Of a stretch of DNA of 25,060 nt, positions 1,210 through 25,060 are shown piece after piece (position 1 is the stretch's first letter; each line of letters opens with the position of its first letter). A model generated the notes under the pieces. It was not told the DNA's origin. It worked only from the letters and a program-made list of their open reading frames with translations, and searched no databases. The position numbers and the translations under genes are program-made. The stretch comes from an uncultured Fidelibacterota bacterium (GTDB lineage Bacteria > Fidelibacterota > Marinisomatia > Marinisomatales > TCS55). Location of the stretch: contig CALEPA010000116.1 of the NCBI GenBank assembly GCA_937910355.1, positions 1 to 25,060 of the forward strand. The letters run 5' to 3'.

Positions 1210-1229
1210 ATCATATGATTCATTTAGTT

Positions 1230-2270: not shown

Positions 2271-2603
2271 GCATCAAGCCTAAGTTTTATGGGGTAATTT
2301 CGGGTAAAAAATGATGTCATTAAAATGATGTAAATATCTTATAATTTTTCTACGAATTACCATTGAAAATTCTCTATATGACAAAAGCCTTTTTAAAATA
2401 TTTGCCATCGGTCCTTTTAGTAAAAGACGGATATTCATTTTGATTAAGCATTAACAATTGAGTCCCCTTCAAATAGATTTTAGCTTCGAATTTCTCGAAT
2501 TTTTACGAATTGATTTTAATGAATTTATGTTGGCAAAATTTGTGCAATTCGTGATTATTAGAGAGTTTTCATGATTGTTTTAATATTTTTTAATTCTTCC
2601 AAT

Positions 2604-4061: not shown

Positions 4062-4215
4062 GATAGCCTCGAGTTAAAGTTTGCGATGTCTGTAAATTAA
4101 AAGAAAAATAAGTGGATTTAACGATACTCAATGTGTTATCAGGAGGAATCACCCAAACAGTCTTGCAATCCAAAATAAACAGTAATTAGAATAAGAGATT
4201 TCTGCGCTAATTCAA

Positions 4216-5229: not shown

Positions 5230-5248
5230 GTTTGTAGGTTTTAGAATG

Positions 5249-6439
5249 TTAGTAAGAATTTTTTAATAGCAAGACCATAGGAATTGTATACAAGATTATT
5301 TTTATATCTAACATCAAATTCCAGTTTTCAGCATATCGAATATCATATCTCATTGCTTCGTCATAATTCACAGGTGTACACCGAAGATGAATTTTTGATA
5401 ACCCTGTAATTCCTGGTAAAACTTGCAGTCGCTTATAATACCACAATTGATATTTCTCTATCTCGTATATTGGGTGAGGTCTGGGGCCTACTAAACTCAT
5501 ATCACCTTTTAAAACATTCCATAACTGCGGAAGTTCGTCTAAGCTTGTTTTTCTTAAGATTTTTCCTGCCCAGGTAATTCGGGCGCTAATTTGTTTTTTG
5601 TATTTTTCCACCAAGTTCGTTTTCTTTATTGTTTCGCGTCCTTTCCCCAACAGGGTGTCAATATATTGTTTGTGGAGAGAATTGGAGTGACTTACTCTTA
5701 ATGTTCTAAATTTATATAAAATAAAAGTAGTGCCTTGATGGCCAATTCTTTCCTGTTTAAAAAGTATTGGGCCCGGAGAACTTATTTTTATCAATAGAAA
5801 AATTAATAAAAATAAGGGGGAAAAAAGTATCAAACCTACAATGGATCCAATTATATCTATTAAACGCTTTAGTAAAAATTGAATATACAAACTACTATCA
5901 GAGATATCTTCCAATAGGCTTATTCCAATTGTATTGTAAGCAATCACACCTATTCCCATTTGATATCCTTGAACTAAATATTTTTGCTTAAACGACAAAT
6001 CTTTTAAGAAATTAGTTTTAACTTCTATTGTTTTTTTTTGAATATTTGGTTTTTGGATAGAATTATCTAACGAATAAAAATCGTCGGCTGAGTTTGAGAC
6101 TTGAAAATCTAAATTTTTTACATTGATTTTTTCTTTAATTATTACTTTACTGAACTTTTTAATTGCAAGTTTAGCTTGCGCTTTGTTAGTATTTGCTAAA
6201 AGAATAAATATATTGTTGTTACCGACATAAAGTGTATCTGTCTTTCTAATTTGATGAGAAATTAAATTTCCAATTGTATTTAGTAACATTGCACTATTAG
6301 AATTATTTAGACTTCCATTGTTCCCTTGTATTCGAACAATTGAATAATGATGATTAAATCTTTCCAACCTATTTTGTTCAATATTCAGCCTTTCAATAAA
6401 GTAAGAATGGTCGTGAATTTTATCTATATTTGCAAACAT
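5249..6439 (-). CDS. Polyprenyl-phosphate sugar-1-phosphate transferase (initiating 'bacterial sugar transferase', PglC/WbaP C-terminal type) with an extra ~190-aa N-terminal cytoplasmic domain
   Basis: The C-terminal ~200 aa has one TM helix followed by ...PGPILFKQERIG..G..F..YKFRTL...SLDELPQLWNVLKGDMSLVGPRP..., the PF02397 hallmark. The N-terminal domain is unusual and is discussed in the findings. Confidence 0.8.
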   Translation of the reverse strand: MFANIDKIHDHSYFIERLNIEQNRLERFNHHYSIVRIQGNNGSLNNSNSAMLLNTIGNLISHQIRKTDTLYVGNNNIFILLANTNKAQAKLAIKKFSKVIIKEKINVKNLDFQVSNSADDFYSLDNSIQKPNIQKKTIEVKTNFLKDLSFKQKYLVQGYQMGIGVIAYNTIGISLLEDISDSSLYIQFLLKRLIDIIGSIVGLILFSPLFLLIFLLIKISSPGPILFKQERIGHQGTTFILYKFRTLRVSHSNSLHKQYIDTLLGKGRETIKKTNLVEKYKKQISARITWAGKILRKTSLDELPQLWNVLKGDMSLVGPRPHPIYEIEKYQLWYYKRLQVLPGITGLSKIHLRCTPVNYDEAMRYDIRYAENWNLMLDIKIILYTIPMVLLLKNSY

Positions 6440-6535
6440 ATTTTTCTCTTATTTGCCAAAATTCAAAAAAATACAGCTCCGCCATTTAAGTCACATAAAT
6501 GTGATATAGAATTTATGAATTAAAAACAGTGTCTT

Positions 6536-11355: not shown

Positions 11356-11358
11356 ATG

Positions 11359-11925
11359 CTAACCACTTATTCTTGAGTACCAATACCATACTTGTATAAT
11401 AATTGCTATTTGGGAAATGACCTTTATTATAGTTTGCCATTTGTACCAGGTGTTTTGTTTTACCATAACAACATCCCCTGGCTTCAAAACAGGCAATGAA
11501 TTTGAATTATTATTATTAAGATAGCTTTTAAGATTAACACGCATTATATTTTTTTCATATGGGTTTTCTTTGTGATTAGATGCTGTTTGTGGTTTTGAAA
11601 ATGTGGGAACTTCTTTTCTTGTTAAAGTGATGTTCTTAAGATTTGCGAATGCAGTTGGGCCCCCCGCTCTTGAAATTAACTCTAAAACATTTGTTCCGTC
11701 TGGCACTAAATATTCTCCTGGACGGGCCACTTCTCCCCATACATGTACTTGGATCATGAGTCTTTCCCCGGGGCCAATTTGGTATTGATCTAGCTGAGAT
11801 TGCTTTTCCTGGGGATATGTATTACTGAATGATAGCATGAGAATGACTAAAAAAATGATGGAATCAATAGTTCTCCATTTTGTTTCTGAGGCTTGCCTGG
11901 TCAGTCCCAATCTCAAAAATCTCAT
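11359..11925 (-). CDS. wza: Polysaccharide export outer-membrane protein (Wza/KpsD family, short form)
   Basis: It has a signal peptide, then ...PGERLMIQVHVWGEVARPGEYLVPDGTNVLELISRAGGPT..., and ...LKPGDVVMV at the C-terminus, which match Poly_export plus an SLBB domain. Its stop is 3 bp from the wzc start. Confidence 0.75.
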   Translation of the reverse strand: MRFLRLGLTRQASETKWRTIDSIIFLVILMLSFSNTYPQEKQSQLDQYQIGPGERLMIQVHVWGEVARPGEYLVPDGTNVLELISRAGGPTAFANLKNITLTRKEVPTFSKPQTASNHKENPYEKNIMRVNLKSYLNNNNSNSLPVLKPGDVVMVKQNTWYKWQTIIKVISQIAIIIQVWYWYSRISG

Positions 11926-11944
11926 TTTTTATCTTTTCCTATCC

Positions 11945-12322
11945 TCAGTTTAAATTATTACCATTAAGAACAATTAAATCCTTTAGGAATTTGTACTGAT
12001 ACAAATCAATGGGCTTTAAAAGACGCAACAAAATTCCTTCCTCCATAATGCGTTTGCTTTTTTCAAAGTCATCTTTCTCAGCAATATAAATAATCGGAAT
12101 ACGAGGGCGACTGCGCCTAATTATTTGAATCAACTCTTCTCCGGATAGCCCTTCAAGGTATTGATCTACAATGAGAAAATCATAATCATTATCAAGTATT
12201 TCTAAAATCACCTTGTGACCATGTCGGATAGTTTCAATTCTTAGGCTCTCTTTCTCGAAATATTTGACAATGTCAATTTCTAATTGCCGATCACACGTTG
12301 CAAGTAAAATTGATTTGGTCAT
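11945..12322 (-). CDS. Stand-alone CheY-like receiver (REC) domain protein, probably atypical or degenerate
   Basis: At 125 aa it has the (beta/alpha)5 receiver length. It conserves the phospho-acceptor-like Asp (FLIVDQ) and the Lys (LLKP). The N-terminal acidic pair reads LLATCD rather than the usual DD, and the Thr/Ser position is not obvious. It is the first gene of the polysaccharide operon. Confidence 0.5.
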   Translation of the reverse strand: MTKSILLATCDRQLEIDIVKYFEKESLRIETIRHGHKVILEILDNDYDFLIVDQYLEGLSGEELIQIIRRSRPRIPIIYIAEKDDFEKSKRIMEEGILLRLLKPIDLYQYKFLKDLIVLNGNNLN

Positions 12323-12369
12323 TTTAAACCTTTTATACGGTAAGTATTAGGCCTTTTAGTCGTCATAAG

Positions 12370-12384
12370 TCAATTTCCATGCCA
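12370..12384 (-). promoter_or_regulatory. Candidate sigma54 (-24/-12) promoter for the polysaccharide operon
   Basis: The minus strand reads TGGCATG-gaaa-TTGA against the consensus TGGCACG-N4-TTGCW. The GG-to-G spacing is correct and the site lies about 50 bp upstream of the REC gene start codon. The -12 position has A instead of the near-invariant C, so this is tentative. Confidence 0.25.
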
Positions 12385-12510
12385 GACGTTATTGCTTTCG
12401 TAACATATTGATAATTAAAGTAATTAATTTAATCGGCTTTTGGGAATGAAAGGGAAATTGTAACGAAGATGAAACTTTTTGGAATCTTGCGGTCTTTTGT
12501 GTGGATATAA

Positions 12511-12530
12511 ATGTAACAATTATGTTACAT
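12511..12530. promoter_or_regulatory. Perfect 8-4-8 inverted repeat ATGTAACA-atta-TGTTACAT, a candidate dimeric transcription-factor or enhancer site
   Basis: The palindrome was read directly from the sequence. It lies about 140 bp upstream of the candidate -24/-12 element and about 190 bp upstream of the operon start codon. A further TGTAAC half-site is at 12559-12564. Confidence 0.35.
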
Positions 12531-13190
12531 TTGAAACATTTGCTTAACAAGTGATGCTTGTAACTGGAGGCATTGGAAAAGATTGTTTCAATCGGAGAAG
12601 AATAATATTTAATACCATCCAGTTTTACAAATCGTGACTAAAGATTAAAATGCAGAAATCAACCTATTAAAACAGCGATTTTGAAGTAGTCGTTATTGCC
12701 AGTTTTTTTGCACCCTACATCTCATTTGAATTCAGATCAGGTTATAGGAAATCAGTTTAACGGCCAGGTGCAGGGTTATCTTGTTCAACTCGATGCTTGA
12801 CAGGTCCGACAATCCGAGGAAATTTTCTTTGTCAAACCAGAATTCAACCTCATCGATTTGAATATGTTTCGATGGCCTCTTCCCCGGTTTTGCCATCATC
12901 ATTGGTGAGGCAGCCGTAAAGTGTCCGTACTCTGTCCGCAATCTCATCTACCATAATGAGTCGTACAGCTTCGCAATAATGGCAGATTTTGGTTTTGACG
13001 GAGGTCACTCCCAATGTGGCTGTTAACCGCCGAAATGACTCCAACGGGATTTTGTCTATTATTAGAATATTCTATCGATAGCTTCTTAATAGATTTCAGG
13101 GGTAATAAATCCCGCTTCAAAATCGCTGTAAATGTAATACAATTCTGGTATTGACATTCCGGGATAAATAAGGTGTTGTTATCTTCCGGG

Positions 13191-13210
13191 AGACTAAGAG
13201 AGTCTTTTTA
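13191..13210 (+). terminator. Short hairpin followed by a T-run (AGACT-aagag-AGTCT-TTTTT), intrinsic-terminator-like, reading on the plus strand
   Basis: It is visible in the sequence. The stem is only 5 bp. There is a perfect TTGACA about 40 bp upstream (13151-13156) but no convincing -10 element. There is no annotated plus-strand gene here. Confidence 0.15.
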
Positions 13211-13256
13211 ATTCTAACAATCGGACGCTTTATTTACGGATGGGATTTCGTAAAAT

Positions 13257-14603
13257 TCATTTTACATTTACGCCCACCTCATACTTTTTCATCCGGTACA
13301 GGAGCACATGCCTGGGAATCCCCAGAAATTCTGCGGCTCTGGTCTTGTTCCCATGGGATTTCTGCAGTGCGTTTTCGATGGCTTGTTTTTCAATTTCAGG
13401 GAGTGTCTCTCGGGGAACAGCAGAAAAAGCGCGCGTCCCTTTACCGGTCCGCACCTCCTGTGCCAATAAATTTGAACTAATCCTTTGATCCGGACTGAGT
13501 ACAATTACGCGCTCAATCACATTTTCCAGTTCCCGCACATTTCCGGGCCAATCGTACGCTTCCAGAAAGGTCAATACGTCCGGATCTATTTTATATTTCA
13601 CTCCGTTGCCGTGTTTCTGGATGAAGTGATGGACGAGCGGCACAATGTCCTCCCGTCTCTCCCGCAACGGCGGTATTTCAATTGGGAGCACGCGCAGACG
13701 ATAGTACAAATCCTCACGAAATGAGCCCTCAGCGACCATTTGGTCCAGATTTTTATTGGTCGCCGCCACAATACGCACATCCACAGAAATGGGCCTGTTT
13801 TCTCCAACCCGTTCAATCTCCCGCTCCTGCAGCACGCGAAGCAGTTTGGCCTGCAAATCAACCTTCAAATCCCCAATCTCATCCAAAAACAACGTCCCGC
13901 CATTTGCCATTTCAAATTTTCCCTGCCGGTCCTTCATCGCTCCCGTAAACGCGCCTTTCACATGCCCGAATAATTCACTTTCTATTAATTGCTCCGGGAT
14001 AGACGGGCAATTCACCGTCACAAAAGGACCGTTTTTTCGGGGACTATTCACATGAATGGCTCGCGCAAGCAGCTCTTTTCCCGTACCGCTTTCGCCGAAA
14101 ATAAACACCGTGGAGTCACTGAGGGCGACACGAGTCGCCATTTGAATCAGCGTCTCCATCACCGGACTTCTTCCCACCAGACGTTCAAATCCGAATTTTG
14201 TGGAAACCTCCATTTTTAACCGGCGATTTTCCTGCCTGAGCTGCCTGAATTGAAGCGCTTTCTCGATGACAAACCGCATGGCTTCCTTTCCAAAAGGTTT
14301 GATCAGGTAATCATCCGCCCCGATTTTTGAAGCTTCCACGGCGCCGTCCACAGAACCATATGCCGTAATAATTATAAAAATAATATTTTTATCAATTTTT
14401 CGAACTTCCCGCAGAACTTCCATGCCGGTCATTCCCGGCATATTTATGTCTGATAAAATCACCTCATGGTCACCGGATTTAAACTTTCGCAGTCCTTCCT
14501 CACCGGAAAGAGCGATTTCCACCCGAAATCCCATTTGTTTGAGTTGGTGGGCAATCACACGACAAAGGCTTTCGTCATCATCGATAATTAAAATTCGAGT
14601 CAT
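13257..14603 (-). CDS. Sigma54-dependent response regulator (NtrC/Fis family bacterial enhancer-binding protein: REC + AAA+ + Fis-type HTH)
   Basis: The REC domain has DDDES and the phospho-acceptor ILSDINMPGM. The AAA+ domain has Walker A GESGTGKE, the sigma54-contact GAFTGA loop and Walker B LFLDEIGDL. The C-terminus has a Fis-type HTH (TRAAEFLGIPRHVLLYRMKKY). No histidine kinase gene is adjacent. Confidence 0.9.
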   Translation of the reverse strand: MTRILIIDDDESLCRVIAHQLKQMGFRVEIALSGEEGLRKFKSGDHEVILSDINMPGMTGMEVLREVRKIDKNIIFIIITAYGSVDGAVEASKIGADDYLIKPFGKEAMRFVIEKALQFRQLRQENRRLKMEVSTKFGFERLVGRSPVMETLIQMATRVALSDSTVFIFGESGTGKELLARAIHVNSPRKNGPFVTVNCPSIPEQLIESELFGHVKGAFTGAMKDRQGKFEMANGGTLFLDEIGDLKVDLQAKLLRVLQEREIERVGENRPISVDVRIVAATNKNLDQMVAEGSFREDLYYRLRVLPIEIPPLRERREDIVPLVHHFIQKHGNGVKYKIDPDVLTFLEAYDWPGNVRELENVIERVIVLSPDQRISSNLLAQEVRTGKGTRAFSAVPRETLPEIEKQAIENALQKSHGNKTRAAEFLGIPRHVLLYRMKKYEVGVNVK

Positions 14604-14710
14604 TTTTTCTTCCTCTGATTTTTAACCATATTAACAAAATTACACCTTACGGGGTGTGCTAAATTAAATTTGTTTTTCATTCCTAAATTCGTGCCAGCGG
14701 TACAACGTTT

Positions 14711-17700
14711 TTACCCGCTGTTTCCGCTGGTACGCGCCATTTTTAAAAAATAAGAGAGTAAGATTCTCTGCTGCTCCTGCGTGAGCGCTTCTTCATCCAA
14801 TTTTAAAATTTTCTCCATATCGCGAAGTGCCAGCAGCACCTCTTCGGGAATGTCCTTCATCGTTTCCGGAAGGTAGAGCAAAAACTGAACTGCCGTGAGC
14901 AGAAACTGCCGCATGCTGTCGTCCACAATATTGCGCAGCATGTCATTAATCTGGGTTGCCAGCCGGGTTACGCGCCCCCGGGAAACGCCGCTGCCGCGCA
15001 ATTGAAATGCGGCTTCACGCGTGAACAGCGATTTAACCGCCTTTGCCAGCTCGATGAAACTTCTCACCTGTTCGGAAATAGGCTTCTCAAGCATCTCCCA
15101 CATCTTTTTCCTGCTCTCACCAATAATACGCCGTTTGTCAAATTCTTCCTGAAATGCCCTGCGCCACTTTTCAGACAGCCGATTCGCAGGAAAAGCGGCA
15201 TCCGCTTCCCAGTTGAAAATATCCCGCTGTAAAAGGACTGCCAAATCAGGACGTAGGTACGGAAGCAGTTCATCGATTTTTTTTCGGCAGGGAATTTGCC
15301 CTTTTGTTAAAACGCCGCTTTTGCGCAGCAGCTCTTCCTGAAACAGAGGGATAAAATCTTTTAAAATCGATTGTTCTTCCTTCAAAGCTTTTAGTGCTGA
15401 ATTACCCGGAGGAAACGCATCTTCGATTCGTTTTAAAAAAATCAGATCCGGATCGTGATATAAACGCAGTGTGTTTAAAATATCGCGAACCGGCAGGTGC
15501 GGTAAAATATGCAGCCGGAATTGCTCTGTCCGCTTCGCACCCTCCATTTCCAGAAATTGATACAAAGACAAGAACAAACCTGTCGTAAATTGGTTTACTC
15601 CCAGCAAAAATGTCTGCGCCTTGTTATGTCCGATTGCCCGAAGCATGGTGCCGTGTGTGGCCAGGGGCAGTGTATTAGACAGGCGTTCCAGAATTTCACG
15701 GCTCCTGTCCAGGACCGGCTCTCTGCTGGGACGCACGGTCGGACGATCCCGCAGGGGCAAAAGTGTGCGGGACAGAAAATAAGACACCACATGGATGCCG
15801 GTCATGTCTTCGGGCCGGCCATAAACAATCTGCGTAAAATTGGATTTAACATAATCCAAAAATTCCACGAATATTTCATCATCTTCACGGCGAACCACAG
15901 AGCTCAGCTTTTGCCAGACGGCCGGATCACTCTCGGGAAGCTGCGAAGCTTTTACAAAGACGCGGTTCCAGTAGTCAACCTGTTTGGTACGGATGTTGTG
16001 AAATACATCGGCCAGCTCTCCCGCGGGGAGGTTTCGCAGCCGTTCCATCACATTGGACTGGAATGTACGGAAATCACTGTGACTCAAAATGCCCATCAAT
16101 GGAGAACGCGCTCGCCGAAAGGAACGCAATTCCAGGGCATCCATTTTTGATTGAAACGCTTCGTTTGCAAACACTTCATCCCGGAACACCGGACTTCCGC
16201 CGGTGGGATCGTAGTACCCCCCCTGACGCTGCGGCGATTCCCCTGATCCGAATTTGATCCGAATTTTGCCCAACAAGTCTTTCTTCCACATCCAGCGATT
16301 AAGCAGATCGCGGGCATCCTGATACAATGAATACGCTTTAAGCTGTCCCACCTGCTGGCTGAGATCCGAACCGGCAATGAAAAATTCACCCATAATCTCA
16401 CAGAATCGATCTTGCGGCCGCTGCCTTAATTTTCGGCTTTTTTCGGCATATTCCCAGATTTCATCCAAAAATTCAGGAATTTTCTGAATGGCCTCCAACT
16501 CCTCAAAGAGCGGCACAATTCGAATATCCGGTAAATTGAGCTCAGGATTTTTGTGTAACACCCGTTCCTTTTCTTCACAAAGTTTCCGGTAAAGTGTCAA
16601 AATGGCATGCGGATTGCCGGCCATGCTGACCTGAATAGCCAGCACCAATCCCTCGTACCCGTACAAACTTCCCAGAACATTTAATTCAACAAGATTATAA
16701 ACCGTAGTGTTAACCGTAAATTGATCTTTATCTAAAATGATTTTTTGGTGAATTCTGGGCGTCAGGTAAAACCGTTTTAAATAATTTTTGTAGAAGCTCA
16801 TAAAGAAAAGCCATTTTTCAGATTGCAGTTTTTCCCGATTGCGAAGCGTCACGTCTTTCGCAATCCGGATAAGCGTCTGATTGATCTCAAACAACCGCCT
16901 CATTTCAGACGAACGCTGCCGGCGGTATTGCTGCATCCGGCGTTCATTCCGGTCGTTATGTTTCCAGAGTGTTTTCAGCGGATCGCGCAGAAGCCTCAAT
17001 TTTCGTAAAAAACGCTTCAATCTTCCGATGGCATATTCCAGCGGAATCGTTTTTCGGTATTTTTCTTCCAGACGGCTGGTTAACTGAGTGATTTTTTGCA
17101 GAATTTTTCGGAAATTTTCGATCTGTTTCTCAATGGATCCAATCGCCTGCAAGGCACGTTCTTCATCCTGTGTTAATAATTGTTCATTTTGAAAGAGTTT
17201 AATCTGCAGCGCCAGCGCCCGAATATTGGCAATTAAAGGGCCTGAGATCAACGTGTGCCCTTGACCGCTGGGCCGGGTGCTGCCGTCCCAATCACCCCAG
17301 AACGACAGGGCGATGTGTTCACTTTCACCGGTAAAAATCTCGCCATAATTTTCTGCAAGGTGCAGCGCTTCAAAATCGCATACAACTTCCTCAGCTTCCA
17401 TCTGAGAAGAGATCGGCACATTTTCTCCCACGAATTCGTACACCAATTCCCGAAAGAGTTTTGAAACGGGAACAGATTCATATATTTCAGGAAGAACGCT
17501 GTTTTTTGCCATCTGTATGAAAAGCTGCTCCACACGAATCGAGTACATCTGCGTCGGATGAACCGTCCGGTCAAACAGGCGCTTCGTAAATTCGTCTCGT
17601 CGACTTTCAAGATCTTCGCCGTGCAGTTCCTGAAGAAACTTCCGGAACAGGGTTTCCCTGAAAACAGGATGTTTCTGTTTTAAACGAACCGCTTCCTTTA

Positions 17701-20359
17701 ATATCAACAAGTCCTGCATCTTATTTTCAAGAAACTGCCAACGCCGGGGCAGAAAATAGCTTAAGAAATCATCCAACACATTCGCTTGTTTCAATTCATC
17801 ATTTGTCCGGCGGGGAAGTGTTTGATAAAACCTCTTCTCCGCAAGTTTTTGGACAGTTTCATATAATTGAACTGTTTTTTGACGGAAAATATCCGACGGC
17901 TTTTGAGTGGAAAAAGTCCTGACCGCGTCTTTTAATAAATCTGTTCGAGGCAGGCGATGGTAATAATAGTTTTCGGCCTGTTTTCTAATCTGTTCGGTTA
18001 ATTCTTCCATCAGGCGCCGAATTTTTAGGGGAATTTCCTTTATCTCCAATTCACCCCCCAGGGTCAAACGGAAAGTCCGATTCGCCAGGTTAAAGCCCTC
18101 CACCGTACGGGAAAAATTAGTCATCGGAATAAGCCCGATTCCCTGATGCGCCAGTTGAAAGGCCAGCTTTTCAATTTGAACCACAGCCGGCATTTTTTGA
18201 ACCGCCAATTGCGGATACATGGCCCCCTGCGGCGGCAAAAAACGTATCTTGTAAGGATTGATTTCATCCGGCAAAGCCTCAAAAGCCTCCTGAATCGCAC
18301 AGGACCGCTGCCACAAAATCCAATCCCGCATCCGCCAAAAAAAGGACACTTTTTCCTGCCCCCTGCGATAAAAAAGGGTGCTCATGAGAATGGCCATTAA
18401 ATTGGGTCGAATATGGGACAGCCTCGCCTGAAATTTTTGGCGTGAGGCCGGATCCGGAATTTCGCAAACGGCCAATCTTGCACCCGCCTTGCAATCGGTT
18501 TTAGAAATCGACTGAAGCGTAATCAAATTCCGCAGGTGCGATTCCCGAAGCTTACCCTTTCCGAGAGCCGTCACGGCAATCTTTTTCAGGCTTCTGACCG
18601 GCACTTTTTCGGCCCTGATTTCCGGAGATTCGATCACCACGTCGGAATAAGACAAATCATCGATCACACGAATTCCACGCTGCAGACAATAAATCAGGAT
18701 CTTCTCCACATCTTGCTCGTCCCAGATTTTTCCGGTGGCATTCTGCGGATTATTCCAGATTACAATGCCTGTGTTTCGCCAATCGGAATCGGCCGCCAAC
18801 TTTTGTTCCAGCACCGAAATAAATCGATCCGGATTAATTTGTAAATCCTCGTTTAACGGCACGGCCGTCACATGCGGAAAAGCATCCCCGACTGTCCAGC
18901 TAAAATCGGGGATGATGACGTCCTGAATCCTCCACGCTTCTGCCATTGTGCTGAGCCCTGTCCGGGCCGACCCGCTGACGGGCACCAGGTGAGCCGGATC
19001 ATATTCCGGATGAAGATTTTGAAAGACCGATAAAAAGGAGCGCGTCAGGGTCTTCTGCCATTCTGAATCGTTTAGATTTGTAAAAAACTGAAGCAGTATT
19101 TCAGCCTGCTGTTTTCCTGAAAAAGGGTCCGGCAAGGCTCTGTTTAGCTGTTTCCCCCGAAAAAAGGAAACCGTTTTTTCAAGTCCCACCCCCAGGATTT
19201 CGGATGCTTTTGAAAAATGTCCAACCATTTGCTGAACATCCGCCGCAATTTCCTCAACAGTCTCCGCCGCGCCCCGCAAAACGCCGGGAAACCTTCCGGC
19301 CACTGCAAAATTTTCATACTCCGAAAAATCATCAGCCGGACTCGGGATGTCAAATCGGCGTTTATTTTGGCCCCGCCGGCTCAAATCGAATGTGCCGTCC
19401 TCATTCAGGAAGAAATCCAACAGTTTAATTTCACTTGCGGGAGGAGTCCCCATCTTCTTAAAATGCCTGCGGTTGAAGGCTTCGATGATTTCAGCCGGTC
19501 CCAGTAAAAAGGCAAGGCTGGAATATTTCAATTCGGGATGGATAATCTCCGGCGACAGAATTCGAACCATTCGCGTCTTCGTCCCGCGGACTGCGGAGAG
19601 ACTTTCGGAAGATGCCGTCTGATTCACTTCAATCAAAAAGATGCGTTTTTCCAAAAGCAATCGACTTAAACGTCTGCGATGACTTTCTTCAAATTTTTTG
19701 TGCAGCACCATGAATCCGACGGACTTTGAACCTTCGGACGCAAAAAAGCTTTCTAATTTCTGAATTTGAGAAGAACCCTCCGTGTCAAAAAATAACACTT
19801 CTCCCGGATATCTTTCATGCACTTCCGGGACTTCCGGAGCGCCCACAACCAGAAGCGTTTTTCGAGGGGTTTCTGCCTGCTCAAAAAACATCTGCAAAAG
19901 TATTTTTAGAGCCTGCCAACGCCCGCCGGAAGCCATAGCAAATTCCGGGGCGGTGTTATTTTTCGAGAAATTGTATCGTACCGGTGTTTTGGGGCTGTCA
20001 TTGAAAAAAACGGCCAGTTTACGAGTGAGTGTCCCCGGATTTTTAGGCGAGAATCCCCCGGCCGGCGCGTACGAGACGGATTTGCGGGATGTCTCGAACA
20101 GAAGCCGGAAATAGGATTGAATATCCGCATCGTCAAGCGATTGGAAAAACACTTTTTCATCGAAATCCCCGGCAGTCAGGCCGGAAAAATCGTCTCCCGA
20201 AAGAATCGCGTTGTACAGGCGATTCAACGCCTCATCCTGAACCGGATTGCCGATATGAAAATTCACTCGGCTTTTGGGATCCACGCCCGCTTCCGCCGTC
20301 AGTTGACTAATTTCTCCGACCAGCGGCGGAGAGCTTTTTTTAAGTTTCAAAAATGTCAT
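14711..20359 (-). CDS. Giant (1882 aa) multidomain protein: two tandem PLP-dependent aminotransferase-fold (class I/II) units fused to a C-terminal phosphoenolpyruvate-carboxylase (PEPC)-fold module with non-canonical catalytic motifs
   Basis: It is a single uninterrupted ORF. Aminotransferase unit A spans about aa 30-330 (NFHIGNPV, YAPAGG...LTRKLA, GGRWQALKILLQ...TLLVVGAPEVPEV) and has no Schiff-base Lys. Aminotransferase unit B spans about aa 400-800 (VSGSARTGL...DVIIPDFSW, IWNNPQNATG matching xNPxNPTG, IDDLSY, and SISKTDCKAGARLA matching SxSK..GxR). PEPC-like motifs run from about aa 900 to the C-terminus: DRTVHPTQ (cf. TAHPTE), SFWGDWDGSTRP (cf. WMGGDRDGNP), QVSMAG (cf. VISMA), IVPLFEELE (cf. 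APLFETLDDL), MGEFFIAGSD (cf. MIGYSDS), KFGSGESPQRQGG (cf. FHGRGGSIGRGG), LRAIGHNKAQTFLLG (cf. LRAIPWIFAWTQNRL), and a terminal ...SGNSG (cf. ...MRNTG). The ORF call is confident. The domain reading is from memory of family motifs only. Confidence 0.6.
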   Translation of the reverse strand: MTFLKLKKSSPPLVGEISQLTAEAGVDPKSRVNFHIGNPVQDEALNRLYNAILSGDDFSGLTAGDFDEKVFFQSLDDADIQSYFRLLFETSRKSVSYAPAGGFSPKNPGTLTRKLAVFFNDSPKTPVRYNFSKNNTAPEFAMASGGRWQALKILLQMFFEQAETPRKTLLVVGAPEVPEVHERYPGEVLFFDTEGSSQIQKLESFFASEGSKSVGFMVLHKKFEESHRRRLSRLLLEKRIFLIEVNQTASSESLSAVRGTKTRMVRILSPEIIHPELKYSSLAFLLGPAEIIEAFNRRHFKKMGTPPASEIKLLDFFLNEDGTFDLSRRGQNKRRFDIPSPADDFSEYENFAVAGRFPGVLRGAAETVEEIAADVQQMVGHFSKASEILGVGLEKTVSFFRGKQLNRALPDPFSGKQQAEILLQFFTNLNDSEWQKTLTRSFLSVFQNLHPEYDPAHLVPVSGSARTGLSTMAEAWRIQDVIIPDFSWTVGDAFPHVTAVPLNEDLQINPDRFISVLEQKLAADSDWRNTGIVIWNNPQNATGKIWDEQDVEKILIYCLQRGIRVIDDLSYSDVVIESPEIRAEKVPVRSLKKIAVTALGKGKLRESHLRNLITLQSISKTDCKAGARLAVCEIPDPASRQKFQARLSHIRPNLMAILMSTLFYRRGQEKVSFFWRMRDWILWQRSCAIQEAFEALPDEINPYKIRFLPPQGAMYPQLAVQKMPAVVQIEKLAFQLAHQGIGLIPMTNFSRTVEGFNLANRTFRLTLGGELEIKEIPLKIRRLMEELTEQIRKQAENYYYHRLPRTDLLKDAVRTFSTQKPSDIFRQKTVQLYETVQKLAEKRFYQTLPRRTNDELKQANVLDDFLSYFLPRRWQFLENKMQDLLILKEAVRLKQKHPVFRETLFRKFLQELHGEDLESRRDEFTKRLFDRTVHPTQMYSIRVEQLFIQMAKNSVLPEIYESVPVSKLFRELVYEFVGENVPISSQMEAEEVVCDFEALHLAENYGEIFTGESEHIALSFWGDWDGSTRPSGQGHTLISGPLIANIRALALQIKLFQNEQLLTQDEERALQAIGSIEKQIENFRKILQKITQLTSRLEEKYRKTIPLEYAIGRLKRFLRKLRLLRDPLKTLWKHNDRNERRMQQYRRQRSSEMRRLFEINQTLIRIAKDVTLRNREKLQSEKWLFFMSFYKNYLKRFYLTPRIHQKIILDKDQFTVNTTVYNLVELNVLGSLYGYEGLVLAIQVSMAGNPHAILTLYRKLCEEKERVLHKNPELNLPDIRIVPLFEELEAIQKIPEFLDEIWEYAEKSRKLRQRPQDRFCEIMGEFFIAGSDLSQQVGQLKAYSLYQDARDLLNRWMWKKDLLGKIRIKFGSGESPQRQGGYYDPTGGSPVFRDEVFANEAFQSKMDALELRSFRRARSPLMGILSHSDFRTFQSNVMERLRNLPAGELADVFHNIRTKQVDYWNRVFVKASQLPESDPAVWQKLSSVVRREDDEIFVEFLDYVKSNFTQIVYGRPEDMTGIHVVSYFLSRTLLPLRDRPTVRPSREPVLDRSREILERLSNTLPLATHGTMLRAIGHNKAQTFLLGVNQFTTGLFLSLYQFLEMEGAKRTEQFRLHILPHLPVRDILNTLRLYHDPDLIFLKRIEDAFPPGNSALKALKEEQSILKDFIPLFQEELLRKSGVLTKGQIPCRKKIDELLPYLRPDLAVLLQRDIFNWEADAAFPANRLSEKWRRAFQEEFDKRRIIGESRKKMWEMLEKPISEQVRSFIELAKAVKSLFTREAAFQLRGSGVSRGRVTRLATQINDMLRNIVDDSMRQFLLTAVQFLLYLPETMKDIPEEVLLALRDMEKILKLDEEALTQEQQRILLSYFLKMARTSGNSG

Positions 20360-20383
20360 TTAAGGGTGCATTTACGTCTATCA

Positions 20384-21346
20384 TTAATCTTTTTGGGCGG
20401 TTTTCGCCGGCTGAATAGCCTCTAACAACGATTGCAAAATCTTCGGCAATCCGTTATAAATTTCGGGGGAAAATGTGACAATCGTACGCGCGCTTTTTAA
20501 TTGCTGGCTGGCTTCTACCAATCGTGTGAGCTGCGGGGTTAGCATAATAAGTTCAGGATGTTTGCTGAGCAATTCGACTTCCTCTTTTTCCAATTCCAGC
20601 GACAGGCGTTTTTTCTCCGTCTCTTTTTCAAGCAGCTTCCGCTCTAATTCAGCCGCTTTTAATTCCTCTATTTCTTTCAATTTGAGATGCTCCATCTCCA
20701 TTTGGTGCTTGAGATGAGCAATTTCATCATCAGCTTTCAACTTCAATTTCTCAGTGGCAATTCGAGACTGCTGATTTGCTTTTTCCGTGGCCTCTTGAAT
20801 GTGGGCTTCTTCCTGCTGCCGGATGGCATCGGCGATTTTCTTGTCCGCGGCTTCCGCTTCGGAAACAACCACAGATGTCACGGTAACCCCAAAATTGTGC
20901 GCCAATTCCCCGAGATGTTCTCTCAGCAATTGGGCTAATTTCTCACGAGAGACCTGCGTAATTTCCAGTGTTTCCACCAATTCGCCCACCAGACCCTGAA
21001 CGGTGCCCGACAATTCTTCTGCCACTTTGTCCACGGCTTCCGAGGTCCATCCTCCGATACGCACCAGATTCTCCGCACGATGCGGATCAGGATAAAATGA
21101 GACGGAAAGTTTAATCACAACACCGATTTTGCCCTGTGCCTGTGTTTTAACTTCGGTTGAAATCGTTTTCATTGTGGCCGGCAGCGCCAACACCGATTTT
21201 GAAACGTACCATCGCTTCAGATAGGGTTGAATTTTTCCGTGTTTTTCAATCAGCAGCAATTGATCGGGACGGCGAACTTTAAAGGAAACCACAACAAGGA
21301 TTACCAATAAGACAATAAAAGCGATTAAAATTAGCCACAAAACCAT
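20384..21346 (-). CDS. SPFH/band-7 (flotillin/prohibitin-like) membrane protein with a C-terminal coiled coil
   Basis: It has an N-terminal TM helix (VLWLILIAFIVLLVILVVV) and an SPFH-like core (...ISTEVKTQAQ...VVIKLSVSF...). The C-terminus is a long Glu/Lys/Leu-rich coiled coil. The ORF table starts it at a TTG at 21421. An in-frame ATG (MVLWLIL...) at about 21346 is preceded 6 nt upstream by a GGAGGA Shine-Dalgarno and is the likelier start. The displayed sequence and the ORF table disagree by one base there, so the coordinate is uncertain by 1 nt. The stop is 24 bp before the giant gene start, which suggests co-transcription. Confidence 0.7.
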   Translation of the reverse strand: MVLWLILIAFIVLLVILVVVSFKVRRPDQLLLIEKHGKIQPYLKRWYVSKSVLALPATMKTISTEVKTQAQGKIGVVIKLSVSFYPDPHRAENLVRIGGWTSEAVDKVAEELSGTVQGLVGELVETLEITQVSREKLAQLLREHLGELAHNFGVTVTSVVVSEAEAADKKIADAIRQQEEAHIQEATEKANQQSRIATEKLKLKADDEIAHLKHQMEMEHLKLKEIEELKAAELERKLLEKETEKKRLSLELEKEEVELLSKHPELIMLTPQLTRLVEASQQLKSARTIVTFSPEIYNGLPKILQSLLEAIQPAKTAQKD

Positions 21347-21542
21347 TATAAATCCTCCAAATTGATATGGGGCTGAAGAAAAATATTTGTTAAATATACA
21401 CTCTTCAGCTTCATTTTGCAAGAAGAAAAGTTTTTAGTGAAAAAAACTTTTGCCCGAAACACATTGATTTTACGGGTAATGCAATCAATGGCCGAAAAAA
21501 AACTTGAAACAAACAAAATGTTTTAATACTATAAATCATATT

Positions 21543-21565
21543 TTTAGGAATGCCTAAATTTAGGG
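21543..21565. promoter_or_regulatory. DtxR/IdeR-type operator (TTTAGG-aatg-CCTAAA, plus a third direct half-site TTTAGGG)
   Basis: The palindrome core TTAGG-N4-CCTAA matches the core of the DtxR box consensus TTAGGTTAGCCTAACCTAA. It ends 18 bp upstream of the DtxR-family gene start codon and overlaps the likely promoter. Confidence 0.5.
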
Positions 21566-21575
21566 TTTTTGCGTA

Positions 21576-22250
21576 ATGAAAAACGAAGCCATCGAAGATT
21601 ATCTAAAAACCATGTTTCAACTTGAAACCGAGCACGGCAAAGTCTCAACCACGGCTTTAGCCAAACGATTGGAAATTGCGCCGGCCTCTGCCACCGGCAT
21701 GATAAAAAAATTAACGGGATTGGGGTTTCTGACCTACAAACCTTACGGCGGTGTGACGTTAACCTGGAAAGGAAAAAAAGCGGCTCTTGAAGTGATCCGG
21801 CATCACCGCTTGATCGAAAGCTTCCTCTTTAACACATTGAAACTCCCCTGGGACAGAATTCATCAGGAGGCGGAAAAATTAGAGCATGTGATTTCGGAAG
21901 ATTTGGAAGAAAGAATCGACCAATTTCTGGGTTCTCCCAAAACAGACCCCCACGGGGCTCCGATTCCAACCAAAAACGGAAAGGTGGACTTCAAAGAAAA
22001 CACTCTTTTGTCTGACCTAAAAGCCGGAGATTCATGCACCATTATTGAGGTGAGCGATCAGGACGCCGAATTGCTGCGGTATCTTGGAAACAGAAATCTT
22101 TTCCCCGGGACAAAATTAACAGTGCTTTCCGTGGAACCCTTTGACGGCCCATTAACGATTCATACCGGAGAAATGACCTCTATTCTGGGCCGAAAAGCGG
22201 CGAGCCGGATTTTTGTTCAAATTGAAAAACGTGAAAATAAAGCTGAGTGA
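21576..22250 (+). CDS. DtxR/MntR-family metal-dependent transcriptional repressor with a C-terminal FeoA/SH3-like domain
   Basis: It has an N-terminal winged HTH (STTALAKRLEIAPASATGMIKKL), a metal-binding/dimerisation region (HHRLIESFL...), and a C-terminal FeoA-like domain (GDSCTIIEVSDQDAELLRYLGNRNLFPGTKLTVLSVEP). The transporter gene starts 10 bp after its stop. Confidence 0.85.
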   Translation: MKNEAIEDYLKTMFQLETEHGKVSTTALAKRLEIAPASATGMIKKLTGLGFLTYKPYGGVTLTWKGKKAALEVIRHHRLIESFLFNTLKLPWDRIHQEAEKLEHVISEDLEERIDQFLGSPKTDPHGAPIPTKNGKVDFKENTLLSDLKAGDSCTIIEVSDQDAELLRYLGNRNLFPGTKLTVLSVEPFDGPLTIHTGEMTSILGRKAASRIFVQIEKRENKAE

Positions 22251-22259
22251 AGGATTAAA

Positions 22260-23543
22260 GTGGGTATGCCTAAACAGAATCGATCTGCAAGATTACGTGG
22301 CCGTATTAGGTCCAGAGCGCGCAAGGAACGCCGTAACCTGCTTTATTTCTTAGGGGTAATCGGGCCGGGTCTGGTTGTGATGTTTGCCGATACCGATGCG
22401 GGGAGTGTGATCACCGCTGCACAGAGCGGTGCAGTGTGGGGGTACAAGCTGCTCCTACTGCAAATCCTGCTGATCCCTATTGTCTACATGGTGCAGGAGC
22501 TTGCCGTGCGACTGGGGCTGGTAACCGGCAAAGGACACGGAGAACTCATCCGTGAACACTTCGGCACAGGGTGGGCATGGCTTTCGGTCTCCACTCTGGT
22601 GGTTGCCTGCCTGGGAGCTTTGGTCACCGAATTTGCCGGAGTGGCCGGTGCCGGGTTGCTGTTTGGAATTCCCCCCTGGATAAGCGTAGGCATGGCAGTG
22701 CTGCTTCTTTGGTTTGTGGCCTGGACCGGTTCGTACCTCTCGGTCGAGCGTATTGCCATTCTGATCGGCAGCTTTGAATTGGTCTTCCTGCTGGTGGCCT
22801 GGTGGGCACGTCCCAGCCCAGCGGCTATGCTGGATGGCTTGACCAAGATCCCATGGCGCCAGCCCGGATATATGTACTTGGCTGTGGCCAACATCGGCGC
22901 GGTGATTATGCCCTGGATGGTATTCTACCATCAGTCTGCGATTGTTGATAAAGGACTGAAAGCTAAAGATTTACGGGCATCCCGCAGGGACACAGCTCTG
23001 GGTGCAATCATCACACAGCTTATCATGATAGCGATACTGGTGACGGTCGCCGCAACCATTGGCATATACCATCCCGGTGAATCCCTGGACACGGTACAAC
23101 AGATAGCAGACGCACTGACTCCATTCTTAGGTAAGACGGTCGGGACAATCCTGTTTGCTATGGGTATGGTCGGGGCGTCATTAGTGGCAGCAATTGTGGT
23201 CTCACTTGCGACTGCCTGGGGATTGGGTGAAGTGAGCGGTTACCAGCGGTCTCTCGAACACCAGCCTCGCAAGGCCCCGTGGTTCTATCTAATCTACACC
23301 GCTATGCTAATAATAGGAGGTTTTATAGTGCTTTCGGGGATGAACCTGGTCAACCTGAGTGTGGCCGTACAAGTCATGAACGCAGCGCTGCTGCCGATTG
23401 TGCTGGGTTTTCTCTACCTGCTGGCACTCAAGGCACTGCCAAAGCCATACCGCCTGCATGGGATCTACTCTGTGGTGGTAGGTGTGGTGGTGGCAATAAC
23501 AAGCCTTTTAGGGATATACGCCGCGTTCAGTTTAATTTTTTAG
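22260..23543 (+). CDS. mntH: NRAMP-family divalent metal (Mn2+/Fe2+) transporter, MntH-like
   Basis: It has GPGLVVMFADTDAGS...AGAVWGYKLL...VQELAVRLGLVTGKGHGE in TM1-2, and AVIMPWMVFYHQS (cf. MPHN.YLHS) in TM6. It is multi-TM at 427 aa. An AAGGA lies 5-6 nt upstream of the GTG/ATG start. Confidence 0.8.
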   Translation: MGMPKQNRSARLRGRIRSRARKERRNLLYFLGVIGPGLVVMFADTDAGSVITAAQSGAVWGYKLLLLQILLIPIVYMVQELAVRLGLVTGKGHGELIREHFGTGWAWLSVSTLVVACLGALVTEFAGVAGAGLLFGIPPWISVGMAVLLLWFVAWTGSYLSVERIAILIGSFELVFLLVAWWARPSPAAMLDGLTKIPWRQPGYMYLAVANIGAVIMPWMVFYHQSAIVDKGLKAKDLRASRRDTALGAIITQLIMIAILVTVAATIGIYHPGESLDTVQQIADALTPFLGKTVGTILFAMGMVGASLVAAIVVSLATAWGLGEVSGYQRSLEHQPRKAPWFYLIYTAMLIIGGFIVLSGMNLVNLSVAVQVMNAALLPIVLGFLYLLALKALPKPYRLHGIYSVVVGVVVAITSLLGIYAAFSLIF

Positions 23544-23584
23544 CGAAGCAATGATTGCAGAAGTAAAAACAAAATTAGTACGCT

Positions 23585-23651
23585 TCTTTCCCCTTTTTCC
23601 CGGGGTAAACCCAGGGGCTAAATAGAGCAAGAATTCTAAAGAATTCTGAAG
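23585..23651. repeat. Partial copy of the REP/BIME-like unit (CCCGGGGTAAACCCAGGGGCTAAA...GCAAGAATTCTAAAGAATTCTGAAG) upstream of the RAYT gene
   Basis: It matches the 5' half of the tandem units downstream of the transposase gene. Confidence 0.6.
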
Positions 23652-23705
23652 CGGGAAAAAGCGGTCCTTATGAATAAACTTTTTATATAATGAAAGGGGC
23701 GCAAT

Positions 23706-24140
23706 ATGCCGTATTGGCGGTTACAGTATCAAGCAGCCTGGGCTTGCAAAAATCGTGAGTGTCTTATTCTTCCAGTGTGGGAATTTGAATTATTTAAATA
23801 TTTACTGAGGAAAGGATCTCAATTGGGAGCAATCATGCACGCTGTAGGCGGAATTGAAAACCATGTTCACGTTGTCTTCTCCCTGCCGCCACAATATGCC
23901 GTGGCCGATTTCATTGGCAAATTAAAAGGAACCAGTTCACATTGGGTAAATCATTTTTTAAATGAAAATTCCCATTTCAAGTGGCAGATTGGCTATGGTG
24001 TATTTTCATTCGGGGACAGCGCTATGAATAATATTATTGCCTATACTCAAAACCAAAAAGAGCATCACAAAAATAACACGATTATCCCTGCTTTTGAAAA
24101 ATGGAATGAAGATAATGAAGAGACATCCGTCTCAAGATAA
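23706..24140 (+). CDS. IS200/IS605-family HUH tyrosine transposase homologue, most likely a REP-associated tyrosine transposase (RAYT)
   Basis: At 144 aa it has the HUH motif HVHVVFSLPP and a C-terminal catalytic Tyr in a Y-x-x-NQ-x-x-HH context (IAYTQNQKEHH). A TATATAAT -10-like box and a GAAAGGGG Shine-Dalgarno lie upstream. REP-like palindromic repeats sit on both sides. Confidence 0.8.
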   Translation: MPYWRLQYQAAWACKNRECLILPVWEFELFKYLLRKGSQLGAIMHAVGGIENHVHVVFSLPPQYAVADFIGKLKGTSSHWVNHFLNENSHFKWQIGYGVFSFGDSAMNNIIAYTQNQKEHHKNNTIIPAFEKWNEDNEETSVSR

Positions 24141-24164
24141 ATCCTGGGGCCAAAATCCAGGAAC

Positions 24165-25060
24165 CTTTTCTCTTCTCTTTGCCCCGGGGTAAACAGAGCA
24201 AGAATTCTGAAGCCCCAGGTCTCAGCATCCTTCAGGATGCTTCCGGTGCTTTGCCCGTGGGTTTACTCACGGGCGGAAGATTTCAAAATAATATAACCTT
24301 TCCCCTTTTCCCCGGGGTAAACCCCGGGGCTAAAAATTGCAAGAATTCTAAAGAATTCTGAAGCCCCCTGGTCTCAGCATCCTTCAGGATGCTTCCGGCT
24401 CTTTGCCCGTGGGTTTACTCACGGGCGGAAAGATTTCAAAATAATAAAAAACAAAAAAAGACAGTCCTTTTCCTTTTGCCCCCGGGGTAAACCCCAGGGC
24501 TAAAATATGGCAAGAATTCTAAAGAATTCTAAAAACCCGGTTCCCAGCATCCTTCAGGATGCTTCCTGCCCTTTGCCCGTGGGTTTACCACGGGAAGCAA
24601 GATTTCAAAATAATAAAAAACAAAATGGGTGCGCTCATTTCCCTTTCCCCCAGGGCTAAAAAATGGTAAGAATTCTAAAGAATTCTGAAGCCCCCGGGTC
24701 TCAGCATCCTTCAGGATGCTTCCGGCTCTTTGCCCGTGGGTTTACCCACGGGAAGGAAAGAATTCAGAATAATATCACTTTTCCCCGGGGTAAACCCCAG
24801 GGCTAAAAATTGCAAGAATTCTAAAGAATTCTGAATCCCCGGGTCTCAGCATCATTCATGATGCTTCCGGCCCTTTGCCCGTGGGTTTACCCACGGGAAG
24901 GAAAGAATTCAGAATAATATCACTTTTCCCCGGGGTAAACCCCAGGGCTAAAAAATGGTAAGAATTCTAAAGAATTCTGAAGCCCCGGGTCTCAGCATTC
25001 TTCATGATTCTTCCGGATCCTTGCTCGTCGGTCTACTTATGACAAGGAATGAATTTCGAA
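24165..25060. repeat. Tandem array of about 5.5 units of a ~145-185-bp composite palindromic element (REP/BIME-like), running to the window end
   Basis: Each unit holds, in order: (i) CCCCGGGG-taaa-CCCCRGGG; (ii) AGAATTCT-aa-AGAATTCT (two EcoRI-centred palindromes); (iii) AGCATCC-ttca-GGATGCT; (iv) CCCGTGGG-ttta-CYCACGGG; then an A-rich tail. Units start at about 24165, 24299, 24467, 24637, 24777 and 24924. Some units carry internal deletions. The last unit is degenerate. Confidence 0.85.

Follow-up and report, generated by a model that had tools for sequence, protein, structure and literature searches.

A two-hairpin repeat arrayed beside an IS200-like Y1 transposase gene of an uncultured Fidelibacterota bacterium and beside its relatives

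Y1/HUH enzymes and their hairpin repeats, as found in the IS200/IS605 insertion sequences (IS) and in repetitive extragenic palindromic (REP) sequences with their REP-associated tyrosine transposases (RAYT), serve as a model of how single-stranded DNA is transposed and of how transposases become domesticated. In the 25,060-nt window analysed here (contig CALEPA010000116.1 of assembly GCA_937910355.1, from an uncultured Fidelibacterota bacterium), a Y1 gene (23706..24140, + strand) is followed by a tandem array of hairpin-forming repeats that runs to the contig end. Do these repeats belong to the gene, and which known system do the two resemble? An earlier note, made from the sequence alone, had read them as a RAYT-type transposase with repeats like REPINs (REP doublets forming hairpins) or BIMEs (bacterial interspersed mosaic elements), each unit being built of four different palindromes. 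We find that the four hairpins of each unit are one two-hairpin arm and its inverted copy, and that the same arm stands beside Y1 orthologues in about 40 other metagenomic loci (33-88% identity, to one another or to the window). The locus is probably a REPtron-like module, an intact IS200-like Y1/HUH gene together with its own bipartite repeat, amplified locally; that the enzyme binds and cuts the repeat as a dimer, and the route by which the array was amplified, we infer by analogy. New here is a bipartite repeat for an enzyme subclass previously reported without repeats; the layout, like that of REPtrons and BIME-2, is known.

The gene is an intact open reading frame (ORF) of 144 codons, and its description as an IS200-like Y1 transposase with HVH and Y..NQ..HH motifs holds. 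The protein matches Pfam Y1_Tnp (PF01797, E 6.5e-20), and the motif residues were located: HVH at 53-55, WQ at 93-94 (KWQ), Y113, and YTQNQKEHH at 113-121. Against the NCBIfam IS200 equivalog it scores 53.9 bits, slightly below the cut-off of 55. Alignment of the family (A2) shows H53, H55, W93, Q94, Y113, N116, Q117, H120, H121 and E131 to be invariant, the last of these lying in a conserved C-terminal tail, HH..T.....EKWSE.(D/E). The AlphaFold2 model (predicted local distance difference test score 87.5) has the features of an HUH Y1 endonuclease, namely an HUH metal site, a single tyrosine on a C-terminal helix and an IS200-type alpha/beta core. Its best PDB matches in Foldseek are the TnpA proteins of ISDra2, IS608 and IS200 (E about 1e-8), while the Escherichia coli TnpA_REP (4ER8) ranks 30 (E 3.7e-6, 13% identity). 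A sequence search of the PDB found ISDra2, IS608 and a Sulfolobus IS200-type TnpA (E about 1e-5), and E. coli TnpA_REP was not among its matches. Judged by its sequence, the enzyme is an IS200-like nuclease of single-stranded DNA with a complete set of catalytic motifs and a putative activity. Its metagenomic homologues number in the hundreds; an exact-sequence look-up of the window protein returned no record.

Within the classification of Quentin, Siguier, Chandler & Fichant (2018; PMC6006769), subclass 1.2 is marked by Y---Q--HH (YIKNQKEHH), WQ and a median length of 148 amino acids, with a conserved C-terminal tail of ~30 residues; it is of low copy number, close to IS200 TnpA, and listed as "REP: no". 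Subclass 1.1 (IS200/IS605) is marked there by Y[IV]ENQ and W[TS], and the canonical RAYT or TnpA_REP proteins (class 2) by Y---NP (e.g. YIHxNP), with REPs that carry a GT[AG]G foot. The accessible part of Table S1 of that paper gives no REP for subclass 1.2 and has no entry for it. By signature motifs, length and tail, rather than by the hidden Markov model of Quentin et al., the window protein is a TnpA_Y1 of subclass 1.2: it shares WQ, YTQNQKEHH, a length of 144 residues, a short conserved tail and few plasmid copies. Its HUH motif differs (NHVH here, DH[IV]H there), and so do the hosts, uncultured marine or sediment bacteria here and isolates of Cyanobacteria or Bacteroidetes there. In about 40 related loci, as in the window, the gene is bordered by conserved arms of two hairpins, which contradicts a reported property of the subclass, not a defining one. 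We did not find a two-hairpin repeat described in the literature for TnpA_Y1 of subclass 1.2.

The anatomy of the repeat follows from the two halves of each unit, which are ~70-75% reverse-complementary (repeat finder, I2-I6). An arm of ~51 nt consists of a 9-bp GC-clamped hairpin A, a linker of 11-12 nt and a 7-bp hairpin B that begins with AG and ends with CT, and both hairpins have a T[A/G]AA (TRAA) loop. The + arm reads CCCCGGGG-TAAA-CCCCAGGG / CTAAAAATTGCA / AGAATTC-TAAA-GAATTCT and the - arm CCCGTGGG-TAAA-CCCACGGG / CAAAGAGCCGGA / AGCATCC-TGAA-GGATGCT. Two inverted arms, joined by a near-palindromic inner linker of 15-16 nt, form a unit core of about 110 nt, and A/T-rich outer linkers of 30-61 nt, in short and long forms, join one unit to the next. 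Inversion of the arms within the unit allows each DNA strand to form this two-hairpin structure. The arm consensus begins with (C)GCC and has no GTAG foot. The palindromes had been called perfect; most copies of the CCCCGGGG hairpin carry one mismatch (CCCCGGGG/CCCCAGGG). What had been taken for a pair of EcoRI-centred palindromes is the single hairpin B of the + arm, and the suggested avoidance or targeting of EcoRI sites was rejected, GAATTC occurring 11 times outside the repeats against 14.5 expected. The closest relative (L110, 78% protein identity) has AGGATTC-TAAA-GAATCCT at this stem, a compensatory change that abolishes both sites; the EcoRI sites are thus a by-product of one stem sequence.

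Six such units stand head-to-tail between 24165 and 25060, where the earlier note had counted at least 5.5 copies, the sixth being truncated by the contig end. Their length had been put at ~180 bp; start to start they measure 131-171 bp, and Tandem Repeats Finder reports a period of 145 bp (score 659). Pairwise identity between units is 72-95%. Shuffling predicts 0.01 occurrences of the hairpin-A pattern; counted on both strands there are 20, and within the window they are confined to 23598-24947. Unit 1 (24165..24295) has a + arm (~24178-24212) in which internal deletions have left only the 5' half of hairpin A and one half of hairpin B (alignment A1), followed by an intact - arm (24223-24275, 59.5 bits against R1, the covariance model of the arm described below). 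Unit 2 (24296..24465; arms 24308-24360 and 24375-24427, 64.6 and 61.5 bits) and unit 3 (24466..24633; arms 24477-24531 and 24545-24596, 42.7 and 47.9 bits) both have long outer linkers, A/T-rich in unit 2, and the - arm of unit 3 has a 1-nt deletion in hairpin A'. In unit 4 (24634..24768) the + arm (24639-24687, 26.6 bits) lacks the 5' half and the loop of hairpin A, and the - arm (24702-24754, 61.0 bits) is intact. Unit 5 (24769..24913; arms 24781-24833 and 24847-24899, 58.1 and 58.5 bits) has a short outer linker and is 95% identical to unit 4 in register. Unit 6 (24914..25060) retains a + arm (24926-24979, 47.6 bits), and its - arm (about 24993-25045) is strongly degenerate, without an R1 match. 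Deletions within hairpins of the + arm thus occur in units 1 and 4; together with the mixed linker types they are read as traces of array growth and erosion. The final ~80 nt (24981-25060) hold a - arm far more degenerate than that of any other unit, and could be either a truly decayed terminal unit or error-rich sequence at a contig end.

Upstream of the gene, the partial repeat copy reported at 23585-23651 is present. It encloses a solo + arm (23596..23648, + strand; 46.3 bits, E 2.9e-9; repeat families D2, D4 and D5) whose partner - arm is missing; its hairpins are CCCGGGG-TAAA-CCCAGGG (A) and, after the linker, AGAATTC-TAAA-GAATTCT (B). The same solo arm is found unchanged in another assembly of the locus (L001), and the 78% relative L110 retains both arms at this place. 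Between gene and array, 24131..24162 (+ strand) holds a putative relic of a + arm hairpin A, GA-TAAA-TCCTGGGGC-CAAAAT, which overlaps the Y1 stop codon; 24142-24162 also folds as a terminator-like hairpin. In the related loci L002 and L027 the Y1 stop codon sits exactly within the TRAA loop of the downstream hairpin A, and the stretch in the window is likely, from its sequence, to be a degenerate remnant of this arrangement.

Are the repeats tied to this family of genes, or do they happen to lie beside one of them? Homologue loci were fetched for the proteins P0002 (L110, 78% identical to the window protein), P0003, P0004, P0005 and P0007 (about 61% identical to it and 81-88% to one another) and P0010, together with 80 further loci (33-53% identity). 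In every fetched homologue of the P series a + arm and then a - arm, of like plan but with different stem sequences, stand both upstream and downstream of the gene, so that the check on relatives proposed by the earlier note came out in favour of homologous flanking units. Units of like architecture flank the gene in L002/L003, L025, L026, L027/L028, L110 and L111-L113 (45-88% identity, to one another or to the window). A strict arm detector, which requires Watson-Crick stems, excludes G-T pairs and allows 26-38 nt from loop to loop, placed arms next to the gene in 20 of the 80 further loci and gave no match in 139 kb of control DNA. The covariance model R1, built from a gapless alignment (A3) of 27 non-redundant arms in 53 columns, gave 245 matches across 602 kb of related loci; 36 of the 80 have matches of at least 25 bits next to the Y1 gene, practically none of them further than 1 kb from it, and nothing in the 139 kb of control loci exceeded 18 bits.

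The arms also vary in a manner that keeps their structure. Among the 27 arms of A3, changes on both sides (compensatory) were seen at 15 of 16 base pairs, and stem covariation was 0.88 against 0.19 in shuffles; pairing was 27-39% with the partner slid, the percent-paired figure being partly circular because the detector requires Watson-Crick stems. Since G-T pairs were likewise excluded by the detector, their absence is no evidence for selection at the DNA level. Independent support for the association is the location of the arms beside Y1 genes, together with the empty controls. Loop positions T11, A13, A14, T42, A44 and A45 are invariant in A3, and the spacing from loop to loop is 30-32 nt in 65 of 69 arms (31 +/- 1). 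Arrays next to the Y1 gene recur elsewhere, with five units in L050, four in L094, six in L081 and at least four, up to the contig end, in L040; L064 and L110 likewise carry arrays. Because the same arm flanks orthologues, stems covary, loops and spacing are kept and arrays recur, we regard the repeats as cognate to the enzyme. Layouts vary among the more distant loci: L081, L050, L040 and L043 have arrays of arms in the same orientation, head-to-tail, with periods of 78-142 nt, and L044 and L058 have one + arm upstream and one - arm downstream of the gene, a layout like that of terminal inverted repeats.

The DtxR-Nramp-Y1 locus was found at ~99% identity, in the same place, in five other marine metagenome assemblies (PRJDB5792 and others); the Y1 gene is intact, with 1-3 substitutions, in at least three of them, and so in four assemblies with the window. 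All five terminate at the array or just within it, L001 24 nt past the Y1 gene and L121 and L123 ~250 nt past it. That contigs of independent assemblies end here supports the array as a breaker of assemblies, which had been offered as the reason why the contig of the window ends; such arrays are a recurrent cause of contig breaks in metagenome assemblies. A scan of genome-collection contigs with a 19-mer of the + arm, AAGAATTCTAAAGAATTCT, found it in multiple copies on a single contig, BDTM01000131 (L019) of the matching species-representative genome, Bacterium BMS3Bbin03. The other ~20 matches were single chance matches in unrelated genomes, and these loci were reused as the 139 kb of negative controls. 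L019 opens with 4.3 further units, followed by a DUF4097 gene, and is most simply the far side of the window array; the array would then probably total 10 or more units, and comprises at least six in any case.

Could the tandem structure be an artefact of short-read assembly, made from one unit? Every contig stops in the array or close to it, assemblies that are 99% identical in their flanks differ in how the linker types are ordered, and the window closes with 80 aberrant nucleotides. Against this, the units differ by 5-28%, with distinct linkers and internal deletions; at least two tandem units are present in the independent assemblies L019, L121 and L123 and in the 78% relative L110; and arrays occur in unrelated samples. 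Because the units have diverged and independent assemblies show at least two of them, we do not take the array for an artefact, a reading to which we give next to no credence. One difference among the assemblies concerns the linkers themselves: L121 (12060-12317) and L123 (4145-4397), compared with window 24165-24470, continue after unit 1 with the long linker type of L019 498-566, unlike the window, which has a short linker there. This difference in linker order is either array polymorphism (copy number or order) between strains or the result of differing assembler paths.

Single units were folded, as the earlier note had proposed, and proved stable both as DNA (z = -5.4) and as RNA (-59.5 kcal/mol, z = -6.1). 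The latter figure raises the possibility that the array acts as RNA, whether in termination, in stabilising mRNA by 3' structures or as tandem small RNAs, its adjacency to the Y1 gene being incidental. E. coli REPs stabilise upstream mRNA, and in L002 and L025 solo arms directly follow the gene that closes a cas operon. But a scan of 23400-25060 with Rfam gave only chance-level matches to microRNA models, and no T-runs follow the hairpins on either strand, so the intrinsic-terminator reading was rejected. The arms also occur in both orientations, and their near-exclusive association with Y1 genes over 602 kb is not expected of an incidental neighbour. A role of the array as RNA with chance adjacency thus appears highly improbable.

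Local amplification, the other half of the REPtron-like reading, contrasts with the spread of repeats through the genome that the earlier note had expected. Neither the hairpin pattern nor R1 found a further arm in the other 23.5 kb of the window, no arm occurs in the 7 kb of L019 outside its array, and the + arm 19-mer lies, as said, on one contig. A 21-mer of the R arm, GCCCGTGGGTTTACYCACGGG, had 0 matches in metagenomes of the Joint Genome Institute, a result that does not bear on dispersal. Across the 602 kb of related loci the arms stand almost only within 1 kb of the Y1 gene, with 3-4 remote sites: L002 7287-7398, about 1 kb off the gene, and single - arms at L002 15456-15509 and L025 10250-10302, which lie 6.6 and 8.3 kb away, directly after genes for RAMPs (repeat-associated mysterious proteins). 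Arms thus appear to stay near the gene. A moderate dispersal may exist in the genome as a whole, but nothing found here is on the scale of E. coli or Pseudomonas, where copies number in the hundreds. In L063 (4857-5761), six weak R1 matches (15-25 bits) with a spacing of ~172 nt lie in GC-rich sequence 3.5 kb from the Y1 gene, and possibly represent an array of arms that has diverged and come to lie apart from the gene.

Among known systems, the E. coli REPtron (RayT/YafM; Messing et al. 2012, PDB 4ER8) offers the closest layout. There, tnpA_REP is bordered by tandem BIME-2 whose number varies among strains, and the origin proposed for BIME-2 is transposition with subsequent local amplification (Ton-Hoang et al. 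2012; PMC3333891). Both systems consist of a single Y1/HUH gene bordered by palindromes, flanked on both sides by cognate repeats as in REPtrons generally, in which inverted repeat variants and short and long linkers alternate and tandem number varies. The alternation of + and - arms in tandem, with alternating linker types, is in its layout that of a BIME. In contrast, the arm combines two hairpins with a fixed spacer and lacks the GTAG foot carried by the one imperfect hairpin of an E. coli REP; the E. coli protein is of class 2 (Y...NP) and that of the window of subclass 1.2; and about 600 REPs are scattered through the E. coli genome, against no dispersal found in the sequence scanned here. 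Of the description as RAYT-type, then, the Y1/HUH gene with cognate flanking repeats stands, but canonical class 2 membership was rejected, Y---NP and the GT[AG]G foot being absent and the hairpins being two instead of one. The CGTC- and GTAG-tagged REP superfamilies (PMC3733652) were also set aside, those REPs being single hairpins with different tags.

REPINs of Pseudomonas (Bertels & Rainey 2011; PMC3116915) share two inverted arms with a short spacer beside a Y1 gene. Their arms are near-identical, form one long hairpin and are dispersed in hundreds per genome, whereas the arms here are 70-75% complementary. Folded as single-stranded DNA, the four local hairpins and a long-range A/A' fold have nearly equal energy, and the long-range pairing is not kept in relatives; the downstream unit of L002, for instance, pairs quite different A stems. 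One long REPIN-type hairpin was therefore rejected as the conserved structure, so that of "REPIN/BIME-like" the second term, with its tandem inverted layout, describes the array and the first does not.

The strongest rival to a REPtron-like module is that gene and arms are an ordinary, currently mobile IS of the IS200/IS605 type, the array being solo ends or derivatives like miniature inverted-repeat transposable elements, left by repeated insertion at a target within the element's own end. Bona fide IS transposases (ISDra2, IS608 and IS200) are the closest relatives of the enzyme in sequence and fold, and the + arms are direct on both sides of the gene, as are the flanking hairpins of IS608 and ISDra2 on one strand, in the manner of left and right IS ends. 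L110, at 78% identity, has a different upstream neighbour from the window. The slot of the gene differs among homologous type III CRISPR-Cas loci: the order is cas6-U-Y1-U-csx1 in L111-L113 and cas6-U-csx1-U-Y1-U-cas10 in L002 (U, repeat unit), with a solo unit in the other slot. These differing intergenic slots are a hint, from gene order, of mobility. Yet WQ and Y..NQKEHH mark the protein as one of the low-copy subclass 1.2; membership of subclass 1.1 was rejected, the Y[IV]ENQ and W[TS] motifs being absent, no tnpB partner being found in the window or L019, and a second copy not being seen, as far as copy number can be tested. Each homologue has a single context across samples and assemblies (metagenome contigs do not yield per-genome counts), the five other assemblies carry the window locus in the same place, and relatives are on only 2 of 72,556 plasmids. 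Every flank, moreover, has the arm on both strands in a four-hairpin arrangement, unlike the ends of IS200/IS605 elements. On balance we find an ordinary mobile IS unlikely. The behaviour matches that of the "IS200 Group 3" of Bertels, Gallie & Rainey (2017; PMC5581495), a RAYT-like group without duplicates, absent from plasmids and with over-represented flanking 16-mers; the repeat structure is not described in that paper, and the group is probably the same clade or a related one.

The type III CRISPR-Cas clade comprises P0003, P0004, P0005 and P0007 (81-88% identical where compared), whose genes lie near cas6, csx1 (Cas_NE0113) and cas10 in L002 (6293-15979), L025 (137-11919), L027/L028 and L111-L120; solo units or arms occupy other intergenic positions of the same cas operons. 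A comparison of L002 with L113 did not define exact cassette boundaries, the flanks being too diverged, and the arms show no similarity to the CRISPR repeat of their host locus L002.

By analogy with TnpA of IS608 and ISDra2 and with E. coli TnpA_REP, a REPtron-like module could work as follows. On single-stranded DNA, such as that at a replication fork, the enzyme would bind both hairpins of an arm, and a TnpA dimer, which has two sites for hairpins, would fit the two identical TRAA loops at a spacing of 31 nt. It would cut and rejoin nearby, so that new copies land beside existing arms, and either strand could serve as substrate, the arm being present on both. Replication slippage or unequal recombination between units may then expand, contract or internally delete the array. 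The outcome would be a local array and no genome-wide REP population.

Several points weigh against this reading. Binding, cleavage and the dimer model are, for this subclass, drawn from analogy. The picture of copy number comes from contigs and a species-representative genome rather than from a complete genome of this lineage, and array order within the repeats may be affected by short-read assembly. The arms used for covariation came from a detector that demands Watson-Crick stems. Among the more distant loci, 44 of 80 have no R1 match of at least 25 bits, many of them being short contigs or having diverged arms. Finally, a member from Bacteroidota has another flanking repeat: the Bernardetia sp. 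plasmid NZ_CP147018.1 (L109) encodes a tnpA like subclass 1.2 (YILNQPEHH), flanked by a different repeat, AGCTGCGTAGCTGCGTAATATTTGTAGAA. Two copies of it in direct orientation precede tnpA and two inverted ones follow (4884-4990 and 5480-5570); the repeat is not matched by R1 and occurs at only three places in the closed 601-kb replicon.

A broader reading, which we advance tentatively and hold to be less likely than its negation, is that subclass 1.2 enzymes own distinct bipartite repeats with 31-nt spacing and local arrays, forming a separate (semi-)domesticated Y1 system of which one clade resides stably in type III CRISPR-Cas loci while hopping between slots. If this were true, the enzyme, perhaps as a dimer, would recognise an arm through both of its hairpins simultaneously, a mode undescribed for HUH Y1 proteins. 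Subclass 1.2, an orphan of the literature (IS200-like, low-copy, repeat-less), gains a covarying cognate DNA partner, and the 51-nt arm with its two TRAA loops is a defined candidate single-stranded substrate for biochemistry. As an example of local instead of genome-wide amplification, the system bears on the growth of REP and BIME arrays and on how a mobile IS passes into a domesticated RAYT.

Some observations concern neighbouring sequence. In L002, an 8-nt periodic motif, GTTNAACN, runs for ~18 registers at 16686-16774 and 17055-17175, on either side of cas2 and directly upstream of the CRISPR array (repeat GTTGGAAAAGACCTGATGTTTGCGGTGGGATTGAGAC). In the window, 1-13130 is a block of low GC content (32%, against 47% in 13131-23584) that encodes a cluster for surface polysaccharide and export, made up of DUF354, epimerase, sugar transferase, Wzz/GNVR tyrosine kinase and SLBB proteins, a TonB-dependent-receptor-like protein and a protein sorted by the type IX secretion system. 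Homology to L121 and L122, two further assemblies of this organism, begins exactly at 13130, and their sequence to the left differs and is also low in GC; the block is either a strain-variable island or an assembly join. An ORF of 1882 amino acids on the - strand (14711-20359), whose sole Pfam match is to aminotransferase class I/II at residues 504-766, its remainder matching no family, is conserved in L121 and L122.

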